In this document: piece by piece, positions 47,954 to 64,000 of the stretch
How the letters are laid out: every line of letters begins with the position of its first letter
How positions within the stretch are numbered: position 1 is the first letter of the stretch
Origin: Candidatus Poribacteria bacterium
GTDB lineage: Bacteria > Poribacteria > WGA-4E > PCPOR2b
NCBI GenBank assembly: GCA_965208325.1
Contig: OZ242326.1
Location: 3,936,001-4,000,000 of the forward strand
Reading direction: 5' to 3'
DNA: 64,000 nt
Made by a program: the position numbers and the translations under genes
Notes under the pieces: model-generated
The model's database searches: none
Told to the model about the DNA's origin: nothing
The model's input: the letters and a program-made list of their open reading frames with translations, nothing else

Positions 47954-48147
47954 TAAATCCGACTCCCACTGATGTTCCCTAGAATTAACTACGTCATCGG
48001 GAAGCGCGCCGGAATATGATTTTTCGGCGCTAGGCGATCGCAAACGGTGTGAACACTGCGTTTCCTGCTCCGGTAAACATTAGCCCTTCGTTCAACGGCT
48101 CACGGCTCGGCCATAAAAAAGTGATCCCACGGCTATTACAATTGGTA

Positions 48148-48501
48148 ATGTGCTATAGAATAGACTCGATAGTCAAGGTGATAATTGACAGACCGATGGG
48201 ATCCCGGCATCCCGAACACGGCTTTATCTATCCGGTTAACTACGGGTATGTTCCCGGAACACTCGCCGGGGATGGAGAGGAGCTTGACGCCTACATTCTA
48301 GGCGAATTTGAACCGCTGGATTCGTTCGAGGGGAACGTCATTGGGCTTATCGTCCGCAATGACGACGCCGAGAATAAGTTAGTTGTCTCTCGATATGTGG
48401 ACCGATACGGAGAAGATGAGATTAGGGCGCTGACCGAATTCCAAGAGCGCTTTTTCGATTCCCACGTGATTTCATTTGTTGAGAAGCCTGCAACGGGATG
48501 A
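48148..48501 (+). CDS. small family I inorganic pyrophosphatase
   Basis: YPVNYGYVPGTL.GDGEELD, DDAENK. Confidence 0.85.
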   Translation: MCYRIDSIVKVIIDRPMGSRHPEHGFIYPVNYGYVPGTLAGDGEELDAYILGEFEPLDSFEGNVIGLIVRNDDAENKLVVSRYVDRYGEDEIRALTEFQERFFDSHVISFVEKPATG

Positions 48502-48622
48502 ATTTGCACCTGTGTTTAACAACGCTTCGGTAATCAGGAGAAGAAATCCCCATGTGAAGCGATGTTTGTGCGACTATAATTCGGTGGGAAAACTTTCGTG
48601 AGCAGGGAAATATGCGAATGAG

Positions 48623-49066
48623 ATGGAAGGGTTAAGTATTCGCAAGGCGTGCGCAATCGACAGCGAATTTGTGTTTGCTACAAAGGCGGAGGCATTCCGC
48701 GCATATGTGGAGCAGGTTTGGGGCTGGGACGAGAGCCATCAGAGAGAATTACACAATGCCCGGTTTGCTTCACATGATTTCAGCATTATCGGGTTTCGTG
48801 GGACTAACGTGGGTTACTTTGCAACGTTCAATACTTCTGAAAAGCTCACGCTGCATCAGTTGTTTATCCTTCCCGAATATCAAGGGAGAGGAATTGGGTC
48901 GGCGTGCATGACACGGATTGTCAACGAGGCTAAGATGGAACAAAAGCCCGTGATGCTTCAGGTACTAAAGATTAACACCCGTGCCATCACCTTCTACCAA
49001 AGATTGGAATTCAAAATCGCTGGTAAAAATTGTACACATGTTCGCATGGTGAGAAACCCTGATTAA
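48623..49066 (+). CDS. GNAT acetyltransferase
   Basis: PEYQGRGIGS, N.RA..FYQRL.F. Confidence 0.92.
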   Translation: MEGLSIRKACAIDSEFVFATKAEAFRAYVEQVWGWDESHQRELHNARFASHDFSIIGFRGTNVGYFATFNTSEKLTLHQLFILPEYQGRGIGSACMTRIVNEAKMEQKPVMLQVLKINTRAITFYQRLEFKIAGKNCTHVRMVRNPD

Positions 49067-49231
49067 GCGGGATTGTTATCCTGCACTTAATTACTACATA
49101 AGTCGGGGCGGCGAGAACGTTGGATGACGACGGTGAGGGAATTGGCTGACGAAAGATGAATAACACTCAGGTGTTGAGGTGCTACACCGCTTGCGTTTCC
49201 TGTTCAGGTGCTTTCTTCACGAGGCACATAG

Positions 49232-49672
49232 ATGTCTGATAGATTCAAACTCATTGCAACCGTCCATGTCTTTCTAACGAAAAATGAAAGTGAAATTTTG
49301 CTCTTGAGGCGCTTCGATACAGGGTACGAAGACGGCAATTATAGCGTGATTGCCGGGCACATCAACGGTAACGAAGAGATTAAGGCAGCCGCAATCCGAG
49401 AAGCGAAGGAAGAGGCGGGAATCGAAATTCAGGCGTCGGACATCAACGTGGTCGGGGTTATGCATAGGAAGGGAGAGGATGAACGGGTGGATTTCTTTCT
49501 TGCTGCCGCTAGATGGAACGGAGGCATCGTCAATGCCGAACCGGAAAAATGTGACGATCTATCCTGGCATTCTGTCCACGATTTACCCGCCAATATGGTG
49601 CCTTATGTTAGGCAGGCACTCGAAAATTATCGGCAGGGCAAATTTTTTGACAGTTTCGGTTGGGAAAATTAA
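49232..49672 (+). CDS. NUDIX hydrolase
   Basis: Nudix box GH...NE....AAIREAKEEAG, NAEPEKCDDL.W. Confidence 0.93.
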   Translation: MSDRFKLIATVHVFLTKNESEILLLRRFDTGYEDGNYSVIAGHINGNEEIKAAAIREAKEEAGIEIQASDINVVGVMHRKGEDERVDFFLAAARWNGGIVNAEPEKCDDLSWHSVHDLPANMVPYVRQALENYRQGKFFDSFGWEN

Positions 49673-49791
49673 GGAGCTCACACCGCTTCGTGAATCCGTA
49701 CTTTAGCCAAACTATAGATGCTTCGGGTACGGAGATGAGTAACGCGAGACCGATGATTGCAACCGATTTAAATATTTGTTAGGCGCTTTAC

Positions 49792-50565
49792 ATGAATATT
49801 ACTCATGCCGAAATAAAAGAATTTCAAACCGCCGGCCTTGTGACTTTGTCGCCGAATTTTCCTCGCGGATGGCTCGAAGCTGCAAATGAAGCTATAGATG
49901 CGCTCGACGATGCCGATTTCAACCCCGAAGACGGGAGAGGTTTAGCCGGTTGGTATATGGGCGGCGTCGTGCAACCCGAATTATTGAGGCTTATCTACGA
50001 TCCATTCTTCGAGGACGCTGCCAAGAGAGTCTTGCGTGCAGACGCAGTCGAATTAACGCTTGTGTCTCTGCGAGTGACGAAACCTAAGCCCAACGCGGCA
50101 GCGGCGCTTGAACCGCAACACGTTGATTTCAAGTGTGGAACAGTCTCTGCCGGAAGCACACCCGTTGCGATGCCCTGTGGCTTTTTCGTGTGGTTGACGG
50201 ATGTCCAAGCGGATAATTTCCCTTTGTATTACCTCCCCGGCAGTCATTTACAGGTGATGCACTACATGGACAATCATCCGGACGACAATAATCATGAGAT
50301 CCAACAAGTGCCGCCTAATCTCGAGTATGCGCCCGCGGTTCCGGTATTTGCGCAAAGTGGGCAAGTGTCCACGCTTTCAGGGACACTTGTCCACGGCGGA
50401 TCTGTAACGCCAGGGCATCGGGAACGTAGACTTCTCGTGATTGAGTTTAGAGCAAAAGGCACCGATTTTCCGTTGTACGCTCAGTTGGAGGAGCGCAGCA
50501 GAAAATACCTACAGGAGTTGAAGAATCACATGCCAACCGACAGACTGCATCTGCTTCCTGAATAA
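49792..50565 (+). CDS. phytanoyl-CoA dioxygenase (PhyH) family protein
   Basis: HVD, WLTDV, LPGSH, LVHGG. Confidence 0.85.
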   Translation: MNITHAEIKEFQTAGLVTLSPNFPRGWLEAANEAIDALDDADFNPEDGRGLAGWYMGGVVQPELLRLIYDPFFEDAAKRVLRADAVELTLVSLRVTKPKPNAAAALEPQHVDFKCGTVSAGSTPVAMPCGFFVWLTDVQADNFPLYYLPGSHLQVMHYMDNHPDDNNHEIQQVPPNLEYAPAVPVFAQSGQVSTLSGTLVHGGSVTPGHRERRLLVIEFRAKGTDFPLYAQLEERSRKYLQELKNHMPTDRLHLLPE

Positions 50566-50605
50566 ATCATGATATATTTTACTACAGCGCCGAAAATCTC
50601 ACGCC

Positions 50606-51067
50606 ATGAAAATGAAAATTGAAAATCGTGATTGTGTTTTTTGCAGAATCGTAAGTGGCGAGGCGGATTCTGCAACGGTATTTGAGGACGATGTGACGTT
50701 GGCATTCATGGACCGCCGGCAAAGCAACGAGGGGCACGTCTTGGTTGTTCCAAAACGTCATTACGAACAAATCTATGACGTAGACGATGACACTGCATCG
50801 GCGCTTGCCAAAACGGTGCGGAAGGTGGCGCGTGCTGTACGCCATGTCTATGAACCCGAAGGCTTATCCATTTGGCAGTCGAACGGCGCCGCGGCAAATC
50901 AGGAGGTGCCGCACGTTCATTGGCACGTTTTTCCGCGATACACAAACGATAGTCATCTTGTGGTTTATCCTGGGGGTACCTCCGGCAGACCGCGAAACCA
51001 ACCGGTAGAATTTCTAAGGAGGATTTCTGTGCCTTTGATAGAAGCACTTAAGAATGGCATCGCATAA
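50606..51067 (+). CDS. HIT family protein
   Basis: CVFC, GHVLVVPKRH, HVHWHV. Confidence 0.95.
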   Translation: MKMKIENRDCVFCRIVSGEADSATVFEDDVTLAFMDRRQSNEGHVLVVPKRHYEQIYDVDDDTASALAKTVRKVARAVRHVYEPEGLSIWQSNGAAANQEVPHVHWHVFPRYTNDSHLVVYPGGTSGRPRNQPVEFLRRISVPLIEALKNGIA

Positions 51068-51216
51068 CTTTGAGGTTTAGTGCTATGCTATTGGTGCAGT
51101 TGTTTCCTACGGACAATCCCTCGACAGGTTTTTAATTCGCTTACGAGCAACACGCTAACCAACAATGCTTTTTCCCTCAAAAATGACTCGAACAGCCGAA
51201 CACATGGAGAACAGGT

Positions 51217-51915
51217 ATGAAAATCGGGTCAATTCATGACGCGGCAGCAAACGGCGATCTGGATGCGGTGAAGAGAATCGTTGAACAAGATTCGCAGGTG
51301 GTCAATCAAGATGACGAATATGAATGGCGCCCGATTTTCCACGCCGGACTAAGACGCCACTATGATGTTGTCAAATATCTGATAGACTCCGGTGCCGATT
51401 TGGCAGCTCATGATGGCTATGCCTTGCACTATGCGGGTGAAGTACCGGACAATAAGAATGTCGTATCGTTGCTCGTTTCCTATGGCGGGTTGGACGCACA
51501 CACCAAACCATCATCCGAGCCCGCTCGGCAGTTTATATATGCCGTGTTTTTAGCTAATGTGACGCGGGTAAAATCCATGCTCGGCGATCATCCAGAGTTA
51601 GCACAGGAGCGCTACGCCCGAGGCGATACGGCTATGCACCATGCCGCTCGAAACGGCGACATTAAAGTTGTAGAACAGTTGGTTTCTTATGGCGCGGACG
51701 TTAATGCACGATCAGATCACGAGCATTTTCCGTTGTACTGTGCAGCCGGTCATGGACACTTAGAAACCACCCAATATTTAGTAGAAAATGGTGCGGATTT
51801 ACGGGCTAGACTTAGCGATGGAAAAACAGTCGTTGAATGGCTAAGACAGTATGCGGACGCCGACAGCCGATTTAGGTTATGTCTGGATTTTTTGGAGGCA
51901 CAGGGCGCGACGTAA
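51217..51915 (+). CDS. ankyrin repeat protein
   Basis: TAMHHAARNG..LVSYGADVNA, PLYCAAGHG. Confidence 0.92.
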   Translation: MKIGSIHDAAANGDLDAVKRIVEQDSQVVNQDDEYEWRPIFHAGLRRHYDVVKYLIDSGADLAAHDGYALHYAGEVPDNKNVVSLLVSYGGLDAHTKPSSEPARQFIYAVFLANVTRVKSMLGDHPELAQERYARGDTAMHHAARNGDIKVVEQLVSYGADVNARSDHEHFPLYCAAGHGHLETTQYLVENGADLRARLSDGKTVVEWLRQYADADSRFRLCLDFLEAQGAT

Positions 51916-52049
51916 TAGGGGCTTTCGGTGATTGTTAAACCGGCGTGTACCATGATCGGTTTCGGAGGATTGGGCTGACGTAATTTCTTACTGCTCTAGG
52001 GACTCTATGCGGCACACGAGTTTTGTAGAGATTCCCTGAGGAAGGTTTC

Positions 52050-52793
52050 ATGTCGATTGAATCTTTAGCCGACTTTGAAGGCATGTCACGGGTCGGAAAA
52101 GCTGTTGCGGCAACGTTGAAGGCAATGTCGGACTACGTTCGTCCAGGGGTTGCGACTGCGGAAGTAGATTGGGTTGGCGCGCAAGTTCTCAGGCAGCACG
52201 GGGCGCGGTCAGCACCTCAACTCATCTATGATTTCCCAGGTGTCAATCTGATTAGCGTCAACGATGAAGTCGTTCACGGTATTCCCGGCGATCGGCTTTT
52301 GCAAACTGGGGATTTGGTAAGCCTTGACGTTACCGCAGAGCTTGATGGATACATCGCAGATGCGGCTACAACCATTCCGCTCCCACCGTATTCTAGAAAG
52401 GCCGCGAAGTTGTGCCGGTGTGCGAAAACAGCCTTTGAAAAGGCGGCGACGGTTGCCCGCGCCGGAAGGCCTATCCATTGTATTGGAAAAGCCGTTGAAC
52501 GAGAGGTGGGGAGAGATGGATTCTCCGTGATTGAGGAGTTAGGAGGTCACGGTGTTGGCAGGCACATCCATGAACGTCCGTTCGTTGCCAACTTTTTCCA
52601 TCCAACCGATACACAGCCGTTGACGGACGGTCTGGTAATCACGATTGAACCGCTGATTGCCGAAGGTATGGGGAAAATTTTTGAGGACGATGATGGCTGG
52701 ACAATTCGAACAGTCGATGGCGGTCTATCTGCCCATTATGAACACACCGTTGTGATTAGGGAAGGTCAGCCAATTTTACTTACGGCGGCGTAG
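52050..52793 (+). CDS. map: type I methionine aminopeptidase
   Basis: SVNDEVVHGIP, D..D, GHGVG..IHE, IEP, AHYEHT. Confidence 0.95.
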   Translation: MSIESLADFEGMSRVGKAVAATLKAMSDYVRPGVATAEVDWVGAQVLRQHGARSAPQLIYDFPGVNLISVNDEVVHGIPGDRLLQTGDLVSLDVTAELDGYIADAATTIPLPPYSRKAAKLCRCAKTAFEKAATVARAGRPIHCIGKAVEREVGRDGFSVIEELGGHGVGRHIHERPFVANFFHPTDTQPLTDGLVITIEPLIAEGMGKIFEDDDGWTIRTVDGGLSAHYEHTVVIREGQPILLTAA

Positions 52794-52900
52794 CGGTTAA
52801 TGTTCTGTTGACGCTCGTTTCTTGCTGCGGAAAAAATGCGCTTTCGCCTTTCAGATTACGGCAGGAGTCACTTGAGAAATGGCGCACAAAAGGCTTCAAA

Positions 52901-53740
52901 ATGAAGACCAACAGTCCGTCCCGTGATGAAACCTACCTTCGAGCCAACCGCGAGAATTGGAATGAACGGGTCGAACATCACTACGGCACCAAGTATTACG
53001 ATGTTCAAGGGTTTCTCTCTGGCCGATGCACGTTAAAGCCGGTCGAACTCAAAGCGCTTGGTGATGTCGCCGGAGTGCGAATTCTCCATCTGCAATGCCA
53101 CTTCGGCCTCGATACGCTTTCACTTAGCAGAATGGGCGGTATTGTGACAGGTGTGGACTTTTCCGAGGCAGCAATTCAGAAAGCACGTGACCTTAGCGAA
53201 ATGACCGAGCTGAGTGCCGAGTTCCATTGCACGGATGTCCACTCTGTGTGGGATGTGCTGGATTGCGGTTCATTCGATCTCGTCTTTGCCTCTTACGGTG
53301 TGTTTTGCTGGATACGGAATCTCTATCACTGGTTTGCGGTTGCGAGTGCAATGTTGCAACCTGATGGCAGAATTTTCGTCGTCGATGGGCATCCGGTGCT
53401 CGACATGCTTAACTATGATGCCGCGGGCGACAGATTTTCGTTCAACGGGAACTATTTCCACGAGGAAGCCCCCGAACTATGCACTGTCAAGGAGTCTTAC
53501 ACCGGGGAAGGCGGCAGTCTGGTGAATTCTACGACCTACCAGTGGTATCACCACATGGGTGAATTTGCCACGGCGGCTGCATCCGCTGGTCTCATGGTCC
53601 ATTCCTTAACGGAGTACCCCTATTGCCATTTTCGCAAGTTCCCGTGCATGGTTCAACGCTCCGACGGCTATTGGGAGATTCCAAATCATAACTTGCCCGC
53701 CATGTTCTCTATGGATTGCAGGAAGGTGCCTAACGTGTAA
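52901..53740 (+). CDS. class I SAM-dependent methyltransferase
   Basis: LHLQCHFGLDTLS, GVDFS, FDLVF.SYG. Confidence 0.9.
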   Translation: MKTNSPSRDETYLRANRENWNERVEHHYGTKYYDVQGFLSGRCTLKPVELKALGDVAGVRILHLQCHFGLDTLSLSRMGGIVTGVDFSEAAIQKARDLSEMTELSAEFHCTDVHSVWDVLDCGSFDLVFASYGVFCWIRNLYHWFAVASAMLQPDGRIFVVDGHPVLDMLNYDAAGDRFSFNGNYFHEEAPELCTVKESYTGEGGSLVNSTTYQWYHHMGEFATAAASAGLMVHSLTEYPYCHFRKFPCMVQRSDGYWEIPNHNLPAMFSMDCRKVPNV

Positions 53741-53814
53741 CCGCACAGTTTTCGCTGCGGTGTAATCGTCGAGGACTCCCGCCGCATAAATTTTTTCTCA
53801 CAACCCTCAAGGAA

Positions 53815-54665
53815 GCCTTAGACGGAAAACAATCCGGGTTGGGGACCTCATCCTCACTCGAGCGTCTCCTTCGCAGGAGGTGTTGGACGTTTTTCGTACC
53901 CCAAAGGCCGGTTATCAAGATTATACCGTTGTTGTGATTGATACGACGGACTTTGAAAATGGCGGGGAACTCAATATTGACATTAAAGTCGGTAGAAATG
54001 AAGGTGAAGGCGATTTTTATCTGTTTGACGGCGAAATTGTACATTTTTCCGATGAAAGAACACCTAAAAACATGCTTGACCGGACAGGTTGTGGGCCCGG
54101 CGAAACAGGGCAGATCACGCGTCGTTGCTACAACGGTCGGGTATTTAGGTTAGGCGCGACCGGACAGCCCGATAGAGAGGAACCGTATGTCAACGCTTTT
54201 CGCGCCGCAGTTTCCGTACGGGAAAATCTAGATGAGGAAAATTCAGGTGAGGACACTTCCGTCTCGTCTTCAGCTGAATTGCGCGTTGTACTCGACAGAA
54301 CGCAACCGGCACAAGAGATATTAGACATTTTTCGTGCATCCGGCAGCGGTTATCAAGATTACACTGTTGTCAATGTTGACACCACAGCGTTGGAAGACGG
54401 CGGCGCACTCGATATCTAAATCCGGGTCGGCGGTGTGGATGCGTCCGGTTCGTTCGACTTATTTGCTGGCGGCGCTAAACTCCCGAATGAACGGATACTT
54501 GAGTCACTTGTCTCGGCATAGGGCGTTAAACCCAATACATATACAACAATTAGGCATTGTTTTGAGCGCGGCGAAGTTTTTAAGCTGGGCGCCACCGGAG
54601 ATTGGTTCAGCGAAAAAGGGGACATGAACGCTTTCTACCTAATGATTTCTATAGAGATGAATTGA
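53815..54665 (+). pseudogene. pseudogene of a tandem-repeat hypothetical protein
   Basis: Two ~125-aa repeats (LD.FR...GYQDYTVV..DTT..E.GG.L.I, F.LGATG, NAF); second repeat continues in frame through TAA 54417 and TAG 54519. Confidence 0.75.
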
Positions 54666-54825
54666 AATTTAAAACACCACCAAACGGTACCATGCATAAT
54701 CATTGATTGAGAAGGCGCAATCAACGTCAAAGGCTTCATCGCCGGACCCTGTCGTCGTTGCCTTGGCTGTTGGTTGGCTTGAAGGGCATAGGTTGCGGTG
54801 AACCAGTCAGGAATTCGGTGGTTGC

Positions 54826-55404
54826 GTGGATAATCCAAATATTGTTATCATCGGCGGTGAATCTCAGGCTGGAACGTACGTTCTGCGGATTCACCTCATT
54901 GAGGACACTACATTACGATTCGGGCGATTCAAGCGTGGGAAGCTGATTTCGCTGCCCGCCGGTGAATATTGCTATGTCGGTTCCGCGCTCTCGGAGAAGG
55001 GTTCGACATCTCTGGCGCGGCGGCTGATTCGGCACGCAACTCGGAGTGGGGGTCAAGCACCGCACCGTATTCGAGATGAGATGATGCGCCGATGCGTTGA
55101 ATGCGGTATGGGAAACGGCTACCTGCTACCAAAGCACGGTAAAACCTTGTTCTGGAACATTGACTTCCTCTTGGATTTAGGTTCGGCGGAGATTGCGGGC
55201 GTCTACGCGGTTCGGTCAGGAAAACGATTGGAAAGCAGGCTTGCCCAACAACTTGAGCGGGATTCACACACGGAAGTCATCGAACGCGGCTTAGGCGCTA
55301 ACGATGTCCCAGGCAACACACATCTGCTGCTCGTCCGCGCGGAGGAGCCGTGGTGGGAATCGCTCGCTGTGCAGATTGCTAACATAGAGGAAGACAAGTC
55401 ATAG
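54826..55404 (+). CDS. DUF123/GIY-YIG nuclease-like protein
   Basis: GTYVL, G.Y.YVGSA, RRL.RH, W.IDFLL. Confidence 0.8.
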   Translation: MDNPNIVIIGGESQAGTYVLRIHLIEDTTLRFGRFKRGKLISLPAGEYCYVGSALSEKGSTSLARRLIRHATRSGGQAPHRIRDEMMRRCVECGMGNGYLLPKHGKTLFWNIDFLLDLGSAEIAGVYAVRSGKRLESRLAQQLERDSHTEVIERGLGANDVPGNTHLLLVRAEEPWWESLAVQIANIEEDKS

Positions 55405-55478
55405 TCGGCTTGCAGCGGACGATGGTTTTTCATCGGTATCCTGAGCAGGAAAAGAATTAGGCTCTGTTGGAGACATGA

Positions 55479-58280
55479 TCATTGGCTGACTAGATGGCTC
55501 ACGTCTATTTTCCAACACTGAAGGTTTGAATCACCCTGAGAAAATAAGAATGTTTTGCCGTTTGGCGACATATATATAGGATTAGCGTTTACCGGTATGC
55601 TAAAGGAGAACTCCTTGAAAATTGAGCCATCAAGCGAAACCCGCTGGAATTTACCGAGATACGCATATGCAAGGTAAGTCTTACTGTCAGGAGACCAACT
55701 TGATCTAACATATTTCTCTCGTATCTTTGTTGGATTTCCACCGTCTATGGAGGCAACATACTGTCCTTGGTGCGATATCGTGAATGTCAGTCGCTTCCCA
55801 TCGGGTGTCCAGGCAATCTCTTTTTCATGCTCTGGAGTGTTCGTAATTTGCTTGGGTTCTCCACCCTTTGCAGGAAGAACATACAAATCGCCTTCCATTT
55901 CAGCATAGTGAGATGATTTCTTCTTTCCCTTCAAACGAAAAAATGCCAGACTATTCCCTTTGGGCGACCAAGTTACTCCCTCAAATACTCCGGCTTCGGT
56001 CAGTCGTTTTACCTTACCGCTGGCTAGCGCAACGACGCAGAGTTGTACGTTATGACCGCTTAATGTATTAAGGAACGCAATTCGTTGTCCGTCGGGCGAC
56101 CACCGCGGTTTTCGGGCAGAGAAATTGCTGTGCGTTAACTGTTTGGACGGTCCACCTGACACCGGCATGATTTGAATGGTGGCTGCATTGTAAAGCCTTC
56201 CACCTTGAGGCATCGTTATGAACTTTCGCTGTACAAACGCAATCCGCTTGCCATCATTGGAAAAGGTTGATTCACCAAGCTCGATTCTCTTCGGGAGTGA
56301 AATAGGCACCGGTGTCAACTCGCCCGTTTCGACATTCAGGAGGCCGGGTTTTTGGTTGCCCGACGATGGGAGACATAAATGTTTGCCGTCGGCTAGCCAT
56401 TGTAAGGGTTCAGACTGCCACATTAAACTCGGGTCCAAGCTCATGGTTCGGTATTCACCGTTTTTGAGACTAAGAGCATAGGTTTTATTATTGAAAGACG
56501 TTTCCACCATGATAATTTCTCCTCCGGATATCCACCTAATTGGTCTGCCAAACATATCCGAATCAGATTTAACAGCCTTGAGAAGAATTGGTTTTCCCGA
56601 AAAATTTCCTTGCTTATCGACTCCAGAGGCGTAAAACCCTTTCTGACTGTTTAATCTTTGGGTGAAGTTGGAATAATAAGCCATCCACCGTCCATCGGGT
56701 GAATATACGAGCGGCTTTAGTGCAGAACCATCTACTACGATCCTTTGCTTACCACCGTCTAATGCTTGAATCCACCTACGGCTACCAATCCCAACGCCTC
56801 GTCGCGATAAATAAGTAATCCATCTTCCATCTCCAGACCAAACTGGGTTCATGTTATCTTTACCATCGGTCGTAAATGGACGAATCTTCCCCGTAGCGAT
56901 CGATAGGATGAAGATATCTGTGTTTTCTCCGTTAGCCCTTTCAAATGCGAGTTCTTTCCCGTCAGGCGACCAACTTAGGCCTTCTGGCCTCTTGTTGGAA
57001 CCGGATTGCGCTAGGAAACGAACTTTGCCTCCAGACACGGGAATAAGACATACGTCCATGTCTTCACCAGTTTCGGGACTCGTCCCAGTAGAAGGACTGT
57101 GACGATAAAACGCAATCCAGCGTCCGTCCGGAGACCACTTCGGTACATAATAGACCGTTGGAATACCTTCATCCACCAAAACCGTCGGATTAACCGGTAT
57201 ATCTTGTGATGCGGATGTTACGGGCAAAACCAAAAGACCACGTGGAGTTGAAGAAGGCCCCCAACTGAAGTAAGTCATTTTTGTTCCATCGGGCGAAAAA
57301 TCGAGATTCCCACTAGGATTGACTTCATCAGGAAGGTATACGCCCGTTAATGATACACCATTTTTCTGCGAAGATCTGAGTTGTCCATCTCTGGTTAGCA
57401 GTTCGCGCCGCTGCGGTTTTTGCCCAAAATCGCCATCTTTCCCTTCAGCACCGAGTATGGCGACCCGAGTCGCTTGCGCGTCTACGGGAAGATCGCCATT
57501 TTCGACAACCTTTGTTTTCAGAGGCAGAGAGCCGCCCAGCCATTCACCCACCGGATAAAGCGGGCTGTGCGGAATGCTCAAGCTCAATAGCAGGAGAATT
57601 ACCCCACCCGCGGCGGATAGCCCCAAGGGCAGCGCGGTCTTGTGGGGTGCTGTCTGAATCTTTGCGTTACTGATTAACTCTACCACACGGGCGGTGAATC
57701 CCGGCTGTAATTTTCTTTCGGCAAAAGCGGTGCGTATCATTGGAATCATCTCCTCACTTAAAATTGTTTTTAATTTTGCTCTGGCTCGCACGAGCCGCTG
57801 ATCGATGGTGTTTGGAGACACCCGCAACGTTTCTGCAATCTCCTTGCTTTTCATGCCAGCCATGTAACGGAGCACTAAAACTTGACGGTGCATCTCAGGG
57901 AGAGAAGCCAATGCTTCATGAAGCTGTTCGACTCTCACCGCTTCCGAATCGGCATCAACATCCGCTTGGTGATTGAGATTCCGAGCGAGAAGGTTCATGG
58001 TTTCAACCTGTTCTTTTTGGGCGCGGTAAAAATTCTTGCACCTGTTGGCGGCAATCGAATAGAGCCACGGATAGAAATTGTCCCATCGCCGCAGTGTAGA
58101 CAGTTTCTTATAGGCGTTGAGAAAGATATCTTGGGTTAGGTCCTCAGCGTCTTGAAACTGCCCGACCTTCGCGTAAACGAGTGCGAAGATACGCTCCTTG
58201 TATTTGTCAACCAACAGGGCAAATGCCTCAGTGTTGCCCGAAAGACATTGATGAACGATATTACCGTCTCTGGTGTGCAT
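55479..58280 (-). CDS. ECF sigma factor fused via a TM helix to TolB/PD40 beta-propellers
   Basis: Regions 2 and 4 in the first ~175 aa, hydrophobic LGLSAAGGVILLLLSLSI, about 12 W/FSPDG repeats. Confidence 0.9.
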   Translation of the reverse strand: MHTRDGNIVHQCLSGNTEAFALLVDKYKERIFALVYAKVGQFQDAEDLTQDIFLNAYKKLSTLRRWDNFYPWLYSIAANRCKNFYRAQKEQVETMNLLARNLNHQADVDADSEAVRVEQLHEALASLPEMHRQVLVLRYMAGMKSKEIAETLRVSPNTIDQRLVRARAKLKTILSEEMIPMIRTAFAERKLQPGFTARVVELISNAKIQTAPHKTALPLGLSAAGGVILLLLSLSIPHSPLYPVGEWLGGSLPLKTKVVENGDLPVDAQATRVAILGAEGKDGDFGQKPQRRELLTRDGQLRSSQKNGVSLTGVYLPDEVNPSGNLDFSPDGTKMTYFSWGPSSTPRGLLVLPVTSASQDIPVNPTVLVDEGIPTVYYVPKWSPDGRWIAFYRHSPSTGTSPETGEDMDVCLIPVSGGKVRFLAQSGSNKRPEGLSWSPDGKELAFERANGENTDIFILSIATGKIRPFTTDGKDNMNPVWSGDGRWITYLSRRGVGIGSRRWIQALDGGKQRIVVDGSALKPLVYSPDGRWMAYYSNFTQRLNSQKGFYASGVDKQGNFSGKPILLKAVKSDSDMFGRPIRWISGGEIIMVETSFNNKTYALSLKNGEYRTMSLDPSLMWQSEPLQWLADGKHLCLPSSGNQKPGLLNVETGELTPVPISLPKRIELGESTFSNDGKRIAFVQRKFITMPQGGRLYNAATIQIMPVSGGPSKQLTHSNFSARKPRWSPDGQRIAFLNTLSGHNVQLCVVALASGKVKRLTEAGVFEGVTWSPKGNSLAFFRLKGKKKSSHYAEMEGDLYVLPAKGGEPKQITNTPEHEKEIAWTPDGKRLTFTISHQGQYVASIDGGNPTKIREKYVRSSWSPDSKTYLAYAYLGKFQRVSLDGSIFKEFSFSIPVNANPIYMSPNGKTFLFSQGDSNLQCWKIDVSHLVSQ

Positions 58281-58666
58281 AAGCGTTCTCTCGTCATGAG
58301 ATGATTGTTACTGCACTATATAGAAACCGCTTACCCCGAATTCTGACATCGGGTTGATTTTTTCTTGAGGAGAAAGGTCGCAATCGCTACAGTGGAATTG
58401 AAAATGTTCCTGCGAATATTGTACCCTGTCTGAACCAGGATTGACAGGATGTTGCATCTGTTCACAAGGAATTGATTACGCAATGGTGAATATATTGAAG
58501 GGCAGAGTGTATACTTATTTAGGTTCATGTTTACGCGAGGAGGAATTGACTGATTGATAATCGAGGCTAGGAAGTCTCTCCCACAAACCAATGGGTAAAT
58601 GTATAATTTTTAGCCGCAACGGCTTCAAAAAGCATGCAATACAGATGTGTTCCGCGTACGGTATGG

Positions 58667-58714
58667 AAAAGAAAAAGGCGTCCGTCTGCCGTGAAATTGG
58701 GGCAAATGGACGCC
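58667..58714 (-). terminator. putative intrinsic terminator downstream of the WD40 gene
   Basis: GGCGTCC..GGACGCC stem followed by a U-tract on the minus strand. Confidence 0.6.
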
Positions 58715-58836
58715 GCGAGGTGTGCGATAGTCATGGCAACCAAGATTGATATAGCTTCTTTCTTGGTACTTTGAGTTTTATGTAATGGTCAATGGGCATT
58801 GGTGACACTATCGCGCTTGGTCTAGACCCCCTCTAA

Positions 58837-58857
58837 CTCCCCCTTGGCAAGGGGGAG
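58837..58857. repeat. palindromic element
   Basis: CTCCCCCTTG-G-CAAGGGGGAG perfect inverted repeat. Confidence 0.6.
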
Positions 58858-58989
58858 AACTCTTCGATGGAAACACTCGCGTACGTAAATTTTCGTTTTG
58901 ACTAATACTATACTTTGAGTTTTCCTGCAATCCGATGGGGAGTGTCTGGATATTGCACTGTGAGACGAGGGTTTATCGGCATCGTAGCC

Positions 58990-61155
58990 TCAATCATCAT
59001 CCGTTTCTAAATTCCACATTACCACCGTTCCCGCCGTTGACGCCGCAACTAGTTTTGTGCCGTCCGGCGAGAATGCAACGGAGGTGACTGGATGCGGATC
59101 GCCTTGTAATGAAGTGATGATATTGCCTGTCGAGGCCTCCCACAATTGGACGGAAGCCCACGATCCCGAGGCGAGTTTCGTGCCATCGGGTGAAAATGCC
59201 ACAGAGGCGATCCTATCCTCATGCTCGAGTGTAGCGATATTTTTTCCCGTTGAGATCTCCCACAGTTTGATTGTGTTATCCCATGACCCCGAGGCGATTC
59301 TTGTACCATCGGGTGAGAACGCCACAGAGGACACTCTATCCATGTGCCCAGCGAGCGTCGCGATATTTTTTCCAGACGAAACCTCCCATAGCTTTACGGT
59401 TTTATCGCCGGACCCCGAGGCAAGTATTGTGCCATCGGGTGAGAACGCGACGGAGGAGACCCTATCCGTATGCGCTGTGAGTGTAGCGACGTTTTTTCCT
59501 GTCGAGATGTCCCAGAGCTTAACGGATTCTGCGCCCGAGGCGAGAATCGCGCCGTCGGATGAGAACATCACACAACTGACCCAACCCGTGTGCTTTTGGA
59601 ATGCAGCAATCTCTTTTCTTGTCTCGACATCCCACAGTTGGATGGAAGCCCATGACCCCAAGGCGAGTTTCCTGCCGTCCATTGAGTAAGCAACAGAGTT
59701 AATCCACCCGCTATGCTTGAGTGTGCCGGTATTTAGTCCTGTCTCAATGTCCCACAGTCTGACACCTTGTGATGCCGGCAAAGGGATAGCGAGTTTTGTG
59801 CCGTCAGGCGAGAACACCGCAGCGTTGACTGAACCCGCGTGGCTGAAATTCGTGACGATATTTTTTCCTGTTGAAACATCCAGCAGTTCAATCGTTCCAA
59901 GGTCTCCGGTGGTATGCGCAACTAGCGCACCATTGGGTGAGAACGCGAGGGACTTGTACAATCCATCTCCTTGCCCTCGGAAAGTCTTAATATTTTTTCC
60001 CGACACAACCTCCCACAGTTTAACAGTTCCATTCACTGATCCTGAGACAAGTATTGAACCGTCAGGCGAAAATGCCACGGAGGATACGCGATCCTTATGC
60101 CCTTTGAGTGCGTCGATACTCTTTCTCGTTGCGACATCCCACATTCTGACGGTTTTATCACCGGAACCTGAAACGAATCTTAGACCGTCGGGTGAAAACG
60201 CTACGGATTTGATTTCATCTGTATGTCCTTTAAGCGTGGCGATGTTTTCTCCCGTTGTAACTTCCCACAGTTTGACGGTTTTATCTATTGACCCTGAAAC
60301 GAGTTTTGCGCCATCGGGCGAGAACGCCACAGATCTTGGCAACTCCGTATGCCCGGTGAGTGTGGTGATATTGTTCCCCGTTGCGACCTCCCACAGTTTG
60401 ACTGTTGTATCCACTGACCCCGAAGCGAGTTTCGTACCATCGGGCGAAAAGGCTACGGACCAGACTAAGCTCCTATGGCCGACAATCGTGGCAAAACGTC
60501 TTCCCGTTGCGACCTCCCAGAGTTTAATGTCATCATCGTCACCCGCAGCGAGTAGCGTGCCATCGGGCGAGAATGCCACAGCATGAAGCCAGCCGGACCG
60601 ACCGCCGGCGAATAGCGCGAGTTCACGAGATGTCTGCACGTCATAAAGCCAGACACCAATGGTCGTTGCAACGGCGAGATGTAATCCATCGGGCGAAAAC
60701 GCTATTACTCTGTCACCTTGACTAATTTTCCCTTTTTCAAAGCGGGCGATGGCATTTTCCGGCAAACCCCACGTCTGATATTCTTGAAATCCAACGGCGG
60801 CAGGTAACCTGGGCGGTTTTGGCCTCCGTCCAAAATCGTCATCTTCCCCTTTAGTACCGAGTATCGCAACTCGAGTCGCTTCCACGTCTACGGGGAGTTC
60901 ACCATCCTCGACAACCTGTGTTTTTAGCGGCAGCGAGCCACCCAGCCATTCGCCCACCGGATAAAGCGGGCTGTGTGGAAGGCTTAAACTTAAGAGCAGG
61001 AGAATTAACCCGCCCGCAGCAGATAACCCCAAAGGCAGCGCGGTTTTGTGGGGTGCGGTTTGAATCTTGGCGTCACTGATTAACTCTACTATATGCGCGG
61101 TGAATCCCGGTTGTAATTTTCGTTCGGCAATTGCTGTGTGCATCATTTGAATCAT
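58990..61155 (-). CDS. membrane-anchored WD40 protein (14 repeats), C-terminal part of a decayed sigma fusion
   Basis: Linker and TM nearly identical to the 55479-58280 protein; 14 AFSPDG-type repeats; start inferred. Confidence 0.8.
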   Translation of the reverse strand: MIQMMHTAIAERKLQPGFTAHIVELISDAKIQTAPHKTALPLGLSAAGGLILLLLSLSLPHSPLYPVGEWLGGSLPLKTQVVEDGELPVDVEATRVAILGTKGEDDDFGRRPKPPRLPAAVGFQEYQTWGLPENAIARFEKGKISQGDRVIAFSPDGLHLAVATTIGVWLYDVQTSRELALFAGGRSGWLHAVAFSPDGTLLAAGDDDDIKLWEVATGRRFATIVGHRSLVWSVAFSPDGTKLASGSVDTTVKLWEVATGNNITTLTGHTELPRSVAFSPDGAKLVSGSIDKTVKLWEVTTGENIATLKGHTDEIKSVAFSPDGLRFVSGSGDKTVRMWDVATRKSIDALKGHKDRVSSVAFSPDGSILVSGSVNGTVKLWEVVSGKNIKTFRGQGDGLYKSLAFSPNGALVAHTTGDLGTIELLDVSTGKNIVTNFSHAGSVNAAVFSPDGTKLAIPLPASQGVRLWDIETGLNTGTLKHSGWINSVAYSMDGRKLALGSWASIQLWDVETRKEIAAFQKHTGWVSCVMFSSDGAILASGAESVKLWDISTGKNVATLTAHTDRVSSVAFSPDGTILASGSGDKTVKLWEVSSGKNIATLAGHMDRVSSVAFSPDGTRIASGSWDNTIKLWEISTGKNIATLEHEDRIASVAFSPDGTKLASGSWASVQLWEASTGNIITSLQGDPHPVTSVAFSPDGTKLVAASTAGTVVMWNLETDDD

Positions 61156-61425
61156 CTCCTCACTTAAGTTTTTTTCAGTTTCGTTTTGGCTCGTACGAGT
61201 CTTTGATGGATGACATTCGGATGCCCCGCAACACCTCGACATTCGTGTCCATTCCATGATTTTAAACGTGTTCAGCAAGAAGCGCAGTGACGACTTGTCT
61301 TTCTTGGGCACAATGAAAATTCTTGCTTTGATTTGAAGCAATGGAATAGAGTCGCGGATAGAAATTGTCCCATCGGCGCAGGGTTGATAGATTTTTATAC
61401 GCTTCGAGAAAGCTGTCCTGAGTAT
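61156..61425 (-). pseudogene. degraded ECF sigma domain remnant
   Basis: Alternative frame reads TQDSFLEAYKNLSTLRRWDNFYPRLYSIA, matching 58050-58140; frameshifts, internal deletion, N-terminus missing. Confidence 0.8.
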
Positions 61426-61564
61426 AGAAAGTGAATTTGCCGCTGTCGAATTTGACGTGACTACGGCAGGCGCCCTACTGTGGGTACGAACATTTGGGGC
61501 TTCGGTGTTAATGGTGGGGGTGAAACTTGCTACAGGAAGACGTGTTTGCCCTATATGCTAAAAT

Positions 61565-61624
61565 GTCGCGATTCGGAGATCGCTCCTACCGTCGGAAAGG
61601 TCGCGATTCGGCGATTGCTCCTAC
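61565..61624 (-). repeat. tandem GTAG-type REP-like repeats
   Basis: Two 25-bp copies (23 of 25 identical), minus strand GTAGGAGCGATCTCCGAATCGCGAC with a GCGAT/ATCGC hairpin. Confidence 0.75.
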
Positions 61625-62394
61625 AGTTCGCGGCTGCGTGGGTTTGTCTTTAGGACATAGAGTTCTTCGAGGAATACGTCGTAATCAATGTGTTTATGAC
61701 CGCCCATTTTTCGGGCGATAGGGTCTCCGATGGTGTGCGCTAATTTCAACCGGCGCGGTAACGGAAGGGTCCGACGACGTACGAGATACTCGCGTATCGC
61801 CGCTAGTTCAGCGTCGGAAACCTGAGCTGGTTGAATCCAGCCGGCATAGACAAAATTCGACTTTTGGATGGTCGGGGGATGTACTGGATTGGGAGAAGCC
61901 ACGGCGTCCTCTTTAACAACGAGTGTACCAGCCGCTAAATCGCCCAACCGCTGCCAATTTTTGTTAAATAGCATAGCGACTAGCCCGGCGCCGTAGCAGA
62001 ATGGCAGAAAATCGATAATTCGGACCAAGTTCCTTATAGCTGAATCTGAAAAGTTGATTGGGTATCCGTTCGTTTTTATAACCCGCAAACCGAGTGCGCG
62101 CTTGCCCGGAGACTGGCCATTTGTTGTAATCTCAAACGCGATATAGTAACCCCAGATGAGCGCGAATATGGCTATGCTGGTAATTGCCACCAGCCAATTA
62201 CCAAAATTTTCATCTAGAACTGCATGGGTACGTATGATAACATAGACACCTATGCAAATAAGCGGGATTAGCACGGCGATATCAACGAATGCGGCATAAA
62301 AACGGGAACCGATTCCTGCAATACTATAGTTGATTCTGATTTGTTCAGGGGTTTCAACATATAGACGGTCGTTAATCTCTCTTTTCGTAGTCAT
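61621..62394 (-). CDS. RDD family protein
   Basis: ETPE, AGIGSRFYAAFVD, GQSPGK..LGLRV, RN..R.ID, QRLGDLAAGT. Confidence 0.93.
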   Translation of the reverse strand: MTTKREINDRLYVETPEQIRINYSIAGIGSRFYAAFVDIAVLIPLICIGVYVIIRTHAVLDENFGNWLVAITSIAIFALIWGYYIAFEITTNGQSPGKRALGLRVIKTNGYPINFSDSAIRNLVRIIDFLPFCYGAGLVAMLFNKNWQRLGDLAAGTLVVKEDAVASPNPVHPPTIQKSNFVYAGWIQPAQVSDAELAAIREYLVRRRTLPLPRRLKLAHTIGDPIARKMGGHKHIDYDVFLEELYVLKTNPRSREL

Positions 62395-62502
62395 TCGATC
62401 TCCAGAGACGTTTATAAGCGCAAATAATTACGCGCAAACCCGCGCTGCGCGGGGTCTACTGCGCGTTTCCCGCAATATCATCAACTGACGACGCTATAAT
62501 AA

Positions 62503-63483
62503 ATGACTTTAGAAGAATTTATTAACAAAAAGCAGCCAATCTGGTCAGAGTTGGAAGGGTATTTGAACCGCGGCCGGCGGGGCAATATCGGCAGCGCTAC
62601 GCCAACGCAACTCAATCGTTTGGGATATTTGTACCGCCGTGTGACCTCCGATTTGGCAATTGCCCGGCGCGATTTTCCAGACGACCGCTGTGTTTCATAC
62701 CTGAACACGCTGGCTTCCCGCGCCCACAGCGGCATCTACCAAAGCTCCCCCTTGAAAAGAAACACGATTCGCCAGTTCTTTAGCTCCGGGTTTCCGACGC
62801 TGTTTCGCAGCAACCTCCGTTTCATCTCGGCTGCGTTTTTGCTGTTTACGCTCGGGTTTGCCGCGACATATTGGATGGCGCTGGTGAACCCTCAAATTGC
62901 GGAAAAACTCGCGCCTGAAGACATTGTTGATACGATACACGAGAAGGAGATGTGGACGAACATTCCGGAGTTACAGCGAAATCTGTTTGCTTCATTTATC
63001 ATGACCAATAACATTCGTGTCGCGTTTTTGGCGTTCGCTAGCGGTATCATGTATATGGTCGGAACAGTTTATATTCTAGCCTTCAATGGTGTGCACATCG
63101 GCACGATTGCAGGGTTATGCCACGTGCATGGGCTCGCCCAGCCACTCTGGACGTTTGTGTCGCCGCACGGTTATATCGAATTGACGACAATTTTTATCGC
63201 GGGTGGTGCGGGCTTAAAAATGGGGTATGCGCTGATTGGCCCGACACTGTTTACCCGGAAACGCGCATTGACCGATGCAGCGAAAACCGCGGTCAAACTC
63301 ATCGGCGGCTGCGTTGTTCTGCTCGTCATCGCCGGCGTGATTGAGGGTTTTATCTCACCTTCAGGTTTACCGCCACCCGTCAAGGTCGGATTCGGATTCA
63401 CAACCGGCGTGTTGCTGTTCTCCTATCTCTTTTTGATGGGCAGGTCGAGAAAACCGTCGATACCGACAAATGCGGAAGATTAG
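62503..63483 (+). CDS. SpoIIM/DUF95 family membrane protein
   Basis: LYR....DLA, I.TNNIRVAF, PHGYIEL, AG.IEGFISP. Confidence 0.92.
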   Translation: MTLEEFINKKQPIWSELEGYLNRGRRGNIGSATPTQLNRLGYLYRRVTSDLAIARRDFPDDRCVSYLNTLASRAHSGIYQSSPLKRNTIRQFFSSGFPTLFRSNLRFISAAFLLFTLGFAATYWMALVNPQIAEKLAPEDIVDTIHEKEMWTNIPELQRNLFASFIMTNNIRVAFLAFASGIMYMVGTVYILAFNGVHIGTIAGLCHVHGLAQPLWTFVSPHGYIELTTIFIAGGAGLKMGYALIGPTLFTRKRALTDAAKTAVKLIGGCVVLLVIAGVIEGFISPSGLPPPVKVGFGFTTGVLLFSYLFLMGRSRKPSIPTNAED

Positions 63484-63563
63484 GTGTGTTTGACATATCG
63501 CCCGCTCTTGAACCTGGTAAGGAGCATTTTTAATTGTCGAATACCACGTTAGACAGGGAATTG

Positions 63564-64000
63564 ATGGCTTGTAGACCAGTCCCTGTGAATCCTAAATTCT
63601 TCAATCCAAACTGTACGCTTCCTTATGGTTTGGCGGTAGAACATATCCGTCAAGCAATGGAAGGTTTTGTTGATTTCCTAGGGTTTATTAACGCGCAACT
63701 TTACACGAAGGAGATTCCGCGCCTTGAAAGTTTCTTAATGCCCGCAAACTTTAGTAGCATCGTTGGCGAGTTCATCAACACCAACATACCGATGCATTGC
63801 TTTGACTTAGCGAAGAACCAGTATCACAATGGACATCCAGATTTGCTTCCAAAAACGATGTTTCCGAATAATGCGGTGCAGTATGCGCAAGAAGGCATCG
63901 AAGTTAAAGCGTCCCGTCATGCAAGCGGCTGGCAAGGGCACAACCCAGAATCCGTTTGGCTTATGGTGTTTTACTTTGACAGTAATACTTCACGCGATTC
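63564..64000 (+). CDS. PD-(D/E)XK nuclease, putative type II restriction endonuclease (3' partial)
   Basis: Not in the ORF track; open from ATG 63564 to the window end; GHPDLLP...GIEVKAS. Confidence 0.6.
   Translation, partial: MACRPVPVNPKFFNPNCTLPYGLAVEHIRQAMEGFVDFLGFINAQLYTKEIPRLESFLMPANFSSIVGEFINTNIPMHCFDLAKNQYHNGHPDLLPKTMFPNNAVQYAQEGIEVKASRHASGWQGHNPESVWLMVFYFDSNTSRD

Follow-up and report, generated by a model that had tools for sequence, protein, structure and literature searches.

What kind of gene joins a sigma factor, a membrane helix and a large outer propeller in one reading frame, and why does its neighbour carry the same middle part in front of a different propeller? The question is raised by two adjacent genes, A and B, both on the minus strand of a 64,000-nucleotide (nt) stretch of Candidatus Poribacteria DNA (assembly GCA_965208325.1, contig OZ242326.1, positions 3,936,001 to 4,000,000). 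This stretch is called the window in the following; coordinates are those of the window, and G000 denotes its own genome. A preliminary description took such genes to form a diversified family of receptors, each with an extracytoplasmic function (ECF) sigma factor and an exchangeable propeller. The window contains one intact receptor (gene A) and one sigma-less gene (gene B); the idea of two intact receptors was rejected because the sigma part of gene B is wrecked. As a whole, our best explanation is that gene A would encode a fused, autoregulated sigma/anti-sigma receptor with proteolytic release of sigma and an extra sigma-less chain, a reading that we hold with slightly better than even confidence and whose parts differ in strength.

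Gene A (55479..58280, 933 amino acids) begins with an ECF sigma domain (57771..58280), in which Pfam finds Sigma70_r2 (residues 23-89) and Sigma70_r4_2 (residues 118-170), followed by PD40 repeats. Sigma2 and sigma4 are joined by a short linker without sigma3, as is characteristic of ECF (group 4) sigma factors, and TIGR02937 scores 93.5 bits against a cut-off of 42.9; the intact sigma N-terminus that had been read from the sequence is thus confirmed. After a cytoplasmic linker comes the only hydrophobic segment that a hydropathy scan detects in the extension (residues 216-234; 57579..57635), a predicted membrane helix rich in Gly, Ala and Ser. The earlier call of a transmembrane helix agrees with the family at large: among 145 representatives hydropathy of the helix is at least 1.6 in 92%, and a positive-inside charge bias is found in 95%. 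A conserved outside stalk (57411..57578, from the alignment of family members) ends at a domain junction near residue 290, and the rest is a PD40/TolB-like propeller domain (55479..57410; Pfam and motif count) with 11 blade motifs by a simple pattern, or 13 including two variants read by eye; about 12 had been counted before.

Genes A and B share a block that corresponds to residues 174-290 of gene A, with 82% amino acid identity (tblastn E 7e-51) and 336 of 405 nt identical. A block of about 115 residues had been seen correctly, but it is not nearly identical, nor does it start at the EEM motif, since the similarity extends upstream into the broken sigma of gene B. Its abrupt end was described rightly: identities per 10 residues are 5-10 up to residue 290 and 0-3 beyond. 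Gene B has an intact frame of 718 codons (58990..61146) that starts at an internal-type ATG and encodes linker, helix, stalk and, as anticipated, 14 WD40 repeats ([FY]SxDG motifs). The Shine-Dalgarno sequence and ATG (61144..61161) are arranged as in gene A. Upstream of them lies a decayed sigma remnant (61162..61423), which has lost the first 48 sigma codons together with the family promoter and contains an in-frame TAA (61264-61262), a 117-nt deletion and two frameshifting 1-nt deletions. These lesions are not an assembly error, an explanation that was rejected because contigs of two sequencing runs agree with the window: in run X1 a 2767-nt contig extends over 58824-61590 and in run X4 another includes 61183-61590, both with zero differences (X1 may be the source sample, and both runs belong to one study). 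The short sigma-less chain is probably all that gene B can still make. Compared with the intact copy in genome G003, dN/dS (ratio of nonsynonymous to synonymous substitution rates) is 0.12 in the block and 0.32 in the WD40 part. Upstream of gene B, at 61560-61600, there is a short inverted repeat with very high contig depth, which is probably an abundant repetitive element at which the promoter and the first codons of gene B vanished.

The start of gene B has its counterpart within gene A, where a Shine-Dalgarno sequence (57755-57750) and an in-frame ATG (M181, 57740-57738) form a predicted second start (57738..57755). We consider it quite probable from sequence conservation that this internal start is used and gives a sigma-less second chain. 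In 33 of the 34 members compared first, K/E-E codons spell a Shine-Dalgarno sequence about 9 nt before the position of M181. The set was widened to 101 loci, from which 9 without an in-frame sigma or the motif were dropped; the remaining 92 fall into 23 clusters with less than 60% identity. Over these clusters the Shine-Dalgarno energy averages -9.4 versus -5.5 for synonymous recoding, with none of 5000 null sets as low and with the same outcome for whole-gene and sigma-only codon use; -7 or lower is reached by 20 of the 23 (null maximum 13). The ATG stands 10 or 9 residues before an invariant Leu in 21 of 23 clusters. In gene A the site pairs with the 16S tail of its own genome at -13.6 kcal/mol, and the Met-Ile codons after it extend the pairing. 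[K/E]E pairs with both codons ending in A are absent at the junction (0/37), as against 9/34 in sigma and 26/76 outside. For programmed frameshifting at the junction, which was also considered, inspection of gene A by eye showed no slippery run.

It could be argued that only the full-length protein is made, a single tethered sigma, that the purine-rich site is the relic of a sigma/anti-sigma operon or a ribosome pause, and that gene B is a dying pseudogene. Stand-alone ECF genes of this genome do carry the ribosome-binding site of the next gene near their 3' end, K/E-rich helix ends readily give such sequences, as the null mean of -5.5 illustrates, a few family members are without the site, and the hybrid sigma factor IutY is described as acting via one chain (PMC5411451). 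These points have to be weighed against the fixed synonymous positions in proteins less than 60% identical, against the retention of AGGAG where K and E interchange, and against a Shine-Dalgarno-ATG spacing that shifts in distant subfamilies yet stays within the range of initiation (about 5-9 nt). A pause site would not require an ATG at fixed spacing, and a dying pseudogene is difficult to reconcile with five lesions in the sigma part of gene B and none in the 2157 nt behind its ATG. We regard the single product as distinctly unlikely.

Use of the internal start would also account for other sigma-less copies. Two with an M16 outer domain (G000 and G002) have a common sigma deletion and frames of 714 and 711 codons (dN/dS 0.39, p 5e-7), and a sigma-less WD40 copy in G026 also keeps a long frame from the internal ATG. 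Several findings nevertheless speak against this reading or soften it. The strong site is absent in 3 of the 23 clusters, all from the 12 clusters of later, more distant loci (9 of 12 pass); G002a is without the Shine-Dalgarno sequence and G026a without the Met. A control Glu in sigma4, E147, is encoded by GAG in 30 of 33 members, so codon conservation alone is not diagnostic, and the 23 clusters are still related, so the synonymous null overstates. The dN/dS of gene B was taken against an intact gene, and the selection may predate the loss of sigma. Broken genes with intact sigma and truncated outer part occur in G001, G026 and G050; decay thus hits both ends. As a separate observation, the first genes of the arrays in G002 and G026 (L031:15267-18128 and L034:4268-7105) are without the family promoter and also without the internal Shine-Dalgarno sequence or Met; these are two cases only.

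The site is not confined to the shared-block family. All 13 C-terminally extended ECF sigma factors of the genome have one at -9.4 or lower (a cut-off chosen after the values were seen), compared with 4.75% of 400 random windows; 5 of the 13 belong to the family and several have unrelated linkers. In the other fused sigmas, and this again counts against the proposal, the internal ATG comes within the helix or past it, or a membrane helix is missing, and their short chain would thus not be an anti-sigma. Among them are three ECF sigmas fused, without a membrane helix, to WD40, to an unknown domain or to a Reg_prop-like propeller (G000:C1:3096245-3097918, 483013-484401 and 2412364-2414565), each with a strong Shine-Dalgarno sequence and in-frame ATG shortly past sigma4. 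Two more clusters with the order sigma, helix, outer domain and different linkers lie at G000:C1:1429492-1443792 and 2624854-2636802; the predicted short chain of the latter starts like a Sec signal peptide. At G000:C1:1249169-1250020 a stand-alone ECF gene is followed by a separate 97-codon frame, the start of which looks linker-helix-like by eye and which is possibly a two-gene analogue; it is not among the best 30 matches of the linker profile.

What would the linker do in both chains? It extends over 57669..57755 and is a predicted built-in anti-sigma. AlphaFold models of residues 1-240 show two helices, 176-185 and 195-204, with good confidence (predicted template modelling score, pTM, 0.75), the mean predicted local distance difference test score being near 80 in two of five models only. 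The model aligns with RsiW-bound SigW (Z 16.1, root-mean-square deviation (rmsd) 3.7 over 158 residues), CnrY-bound CnrH (Z 13.7) and NepR-bound RpoE (Z 13.6). The modelled sigma fits these three anti-sigma-bound factors over almost its full length; polymerase-bound sigmas are at about 27 Å. When residues 1-173 were modelled alone the sigma was open (pTM 0.49) and 31.6 Å rmsd from the same SigW. The closed form thus appears only with the linker, which is predicted to clamp sigma2 onto sigma4 as in crystals of sigma/anti-sigma complexes, although the linker has no sequence match to anti-sigmas. On these models the linker likely inhibits sigma.

In known complexes the last helix of the anti-sigma binds sigma2, and CnrY has two helices (PMC7406223). 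The class I layout, a three-helix bundle plus a fourth helix, differs from that of gene A, where the model has two helices between sigma4 and the membrane. Arguments against an anti-sigma are that the alignments behind the models have 31-32 rows only and that a linker profile matched no solved anti-sigma among PDB sequences and no family in Pfam. The helix that contains LQPGFT, which may be like helix 4 of RseA, likewise gave no match in these two profile searches. The earlier claim that the receptors need no separate anti-sigma holds by gene count only: an anti-sigma is predicted within the fusion, in the linker, and a separate, sigma-less anti-sigma chain is probably made from the gene as well.

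That outer domains have been exchanged on a constant sigma and membrane chassis is, from sequence comparison, the part of the reading of which we are most confident. In a tree of 53 chassis proteins, four WD40 proteins, among them the intact G003 copy from the corresponding position, are nested in a PD40 clade (100/100) and sister to a PD40 gene (99/97); two unassigned outer domains fall within a distant WD40 clade, and the starred branches require the WD40 label to have changed at least four times. Two taxon changes, the minimum, suffice for the chassis tree of 14 PD40 genes, the outer-domain tree takes five, and holding the seven genes of this genus together in the outer tree is rejected (approximately unbiased test, p 3e-41). 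In these genes it is the chassis, not the outer domain, that tracks taxonomy, a pattern that homogenisation of the chassis within lineages would produce. Gene A itself reads as a mosaic of two array types of G002: in nt 22-400 it agrees with G002c at 67 of 76 informative sites, then with G002e at 36 of 56 in nt 401-870 and at 108 of 112 beyond.

The source of the WD40 domain of gene B can be narrowed down. Among 31 other WD40 proteins of the genome its closest matches share 39-46% identity with it, and it begins where the signal peptide ends in most of this exported WD40 family, of which the proteins with exact motifs have a hydrophobic leader in 12 of 13 cases. This suggests that the exported family was the donor. 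The same starting point suggests that the C-terminus of the receptor lies outside, with which hydropathy and charge bias of the helix agree. Genome-wide, G000 has about 30 paralogous WD40 proteins, mostly with signal peptides and a common mature start. We propose that the family would have grown by grafting of the chassis onto genes of exported proteins, replacing the signal peptide, and that gene B would be such a graft that lost its sigma later and kept the short chain as its only product. Sigma2 and sigma4 vary little within arrays; the exchange thus probably alters input more than output.

Of 151 genomes sampled from the phylum, 130 contain matches to a 65-column profile of linker and helix, at most 37 per genome; these matches form 246 clusters at 50% identity. 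Four of 111 close homologues carry a taxon in the source name, all four Candidatus Poribacteria. Close relatives sit in tandem arrays of two to five genes. Among 150 representatives listed, 80 have intact sigma, block and a long outer part; by similarity to a reference set these are Kelch (24), PD40 (9), WD40 (7, one of them counted under a stray label), CarboxypepD-like (5), BNR (2), M16 (1) and unassigned (32). Pfam adds LRR, Reg_prop plus redoxin, FGE-sulfatase, FG-GAP, ASPIC/UnbV, NHL, GH32-like and DUF1080 for the unassigned, 14 of which gave no outer family at E 1e-7, and FlgD-tailed outer parts also occur in the family. With more than ten outer-domain types on block-bearing genes the block is not tied to a single C-terminal type, as had been suspected. 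When the chassis is aligned with members that carry other outer domains, the alignment mostly stops near residue 267 or at 283-291; the junction is thus fixed fairly, not strictly. Of the proposed receptor family, the constant sigma and membrane chassis with exchangeable outer domains is supported, but gene B is not a second receptor and the outer domains include types other than propellers.

Gene A and 14 related genes are preceded by a conserved motif that resembles an ECF-type promoter and may act as one, with a TGTCAG box and a TCTATA box (58317..58350 for gene A), and most array members have a motif of their own. Between B and A lies a hairpin with a U-tract (58667..58714, -22.3 kcal/mol), likely a terminator; terminator-like hairpins recur between array members in this genus, although this one was not picked up by a simple scan. 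When the genome was scanned with a promoter profile, only gene A's own promoter stood above background (score 37 versus 19.5 for the next), with spacers of 9-11 scanned and training promoters having 11-12, so that the commonest spacer was omitted. The scans revealed no target genes; a pattern of the core boxes had 28 matches versus 31-50 in shuffled sequences. Two near-identical intergenic matches (G000:C1:1549135 and 1550808) stand before neighbouring genes, one with a signal-peptide-like start; they are possible target promoters, in a number that is within chance for the scan.

The lone promoter invites a different emphasis, in which the gene would mainly make the short exported or anchored chain, with the full-length fusion as a minor reporter that drives its own gene and with the outer domain as output as well as sensor. 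This would explain why in 18 of 23 clusters the first start is weaker than the internal site (9 of the 23 first starts are GTG), why outer parts such as M16, FGE-sulfatase, redoxin, GH32-like, ASPIC/UnbV and FlgD-tailed match mature exported proteins, why sigma-less copies persist, one of them retaining the promoter motif, and why other fused sigmas would yield short chains without an anti-sigma part. The promoter scan on which it leans is weak for the reasons given, leaving room for a regulon, and the short chain of this family retains the predicted inhibitory helix at a fixed distance from its start. We consider such a self-monitoring unit rather improbable; it is compatible with the best explanation, from which it differs mainly in emphasis.

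In the fused receptor as we envisage it, sigma, two-helix anti-sigma linker, membrane helix and outer propeller would act as one chain, and the gene would regulate itself through its own ECF-type promoter. Initiation at the stronger internal site would give the short chain in excess, which would buffer released sigma like the anti-sigma of an ordinary two-gene operon and would also display more outer domain. Triggering of the outer domain would lead to a cut outside and then to an RseP-type cut that frees the sigma end; the linker would then still have to be cleared from sigma, by removal or displacement. Release by proteolysis is, by analogy with IutY, somewhat favoured in our estimate. A Peptidase_M50 gene is present in the genome in a 604-codon frame (Pfam search), although a scan with a site-2 protease motif pattern gave no match. 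The difficulty is that sigma would still carry the inhibitory linker after being cut free in the membrane. This problem would be sidestepped if ligand binding or clustering of the propellers pulled the linker off and the membrane-bound sigma recruited RNA polymerase, and a protein interaction has been proposed for ECF57 (PMC8999054). Activation without cleavage is nevertheless very unlikely in our judgement, since IutY, the one characterised sigma-membrane-anti-sigma hybrid, needs Prc and RseP (PMC5411451, PMC8999054). The composition of the helix points the same way, richness in Gly, Ala and Ser being typical for site-2 protease substrates.

More broadly, the repertoire of Poribacteria may derive from one nested gene design, a homogenised chassis grafted on genes of exported proteins with an internal start that makes inhibitor and payload in excess; we give this generalisation somewhat less than an even chance. 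If it is true, one gene equals a whole sigma/anti-sigma operon that can be retargeted by recombination, and the gene outlives the loss of sigma as a working sensor-only gene. Many apparent pseudogenes of Poribacteria, and many of their eukaryote-like repeat proteins (WD40, Kelch, NHL, LRR), would then be parts of a single signalling design.

The locus is flanked by genes for DUF123 (54826-55404), RDD (61621-62394) and SpoIIM (62503-63483) proteins, and the RDD-SpoIIM pair flanks it in G001 and G003 too. Elsewhere in the window there is a stand-alone ECF gene (541-1122; G000:C1:3936541-3937122), and the product of the gene after it starts like a zinc anti-sigma. The window also contains a truncated sigma that belongs to the fused family (G000:C1:3964501-3964857).

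How does the family compare with known systems? IutY of Pseudomonas putida (ECF243) has, like gene A, a cytosolic ECF sigma, a single membrane helix and an outside domain in one chain and is the best precedent for release by Prc and RseP, but it has a FecR-type anti-sigma and an adjacent TonB receptor (PMC5411451, PMC8999054). In the Pfam list of gene A there is no FecR family at E 0.01, and no TonB-dependent receptor was found beside it, where 48000-64000 contains no other open reading frame above 330 amino acids and the neighbours are those named above. Outer-domain exchange is not described for IutY in the parts of these sources available, and the word "internal" is absent from the main text of PMC5411451.

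The class I and II anti-sigmas RseA, RsiW and CnrY place their last cytoplasmic helix on sigma2, followed by a membrane helix and an outside domain, as proposed here (PMC7406223); they are separate genes, whereas the linker of gene A has two modelled helices and neither a three-helix bundle nor a zinc motif nor a sequence match. An anti-sigma fused behind sigma, as in gene A, is described for ECF48, ECF52 (SCO4117), ECF53, ECF249s14 and ECF270s2, with proteolytic activation proposed for ECF48, ECF52 and ECF53; ECF48, ECF52, ECF53 and ECF270s2 are described with a zinc-finger anti-sigma (ZAS) domain, a motif that the linker lacks. Such fused proteins are regarded as switches of one chain with a one-to-one ratio. 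With a conserved internal start, a single frame would again supply a free anti-sigma, a regulatory use of in-frame isoforms that we did not find described for ECF sigma factors; the titles and beginnings of abstracts searched contained no description of this Poribacteria family or of the internal start.

ECF sigmas with WD40 repeats are reported from one planctomycete, where they were recovered from detergent-soluble fractions (PMC8567305). The group ECF57 of Planctomycetes is likewise extended at the C-terminus by membrane helices, in some members also by WD40-like repeats, and its release from the membrane has been proposed (PMC7826278), so that the overall architecture had indeed been described before. 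The source lists ECF57 as 100% planctomycete, with about two helices, a fully conserved pair of Cys in sigma2 and sigma4 and no conserved promoter (PMC7826278). The present family is from Poribacteria and has one helix and a conserved promoter-like motif; Cys is found in sigma2 of 80 of 80 members and in sigma4 of 12 of 80, the sigma4 of gene A being without it. By these descriptions the family resembles ECF57 and would work like IutY, yet it departs from listed features of both.

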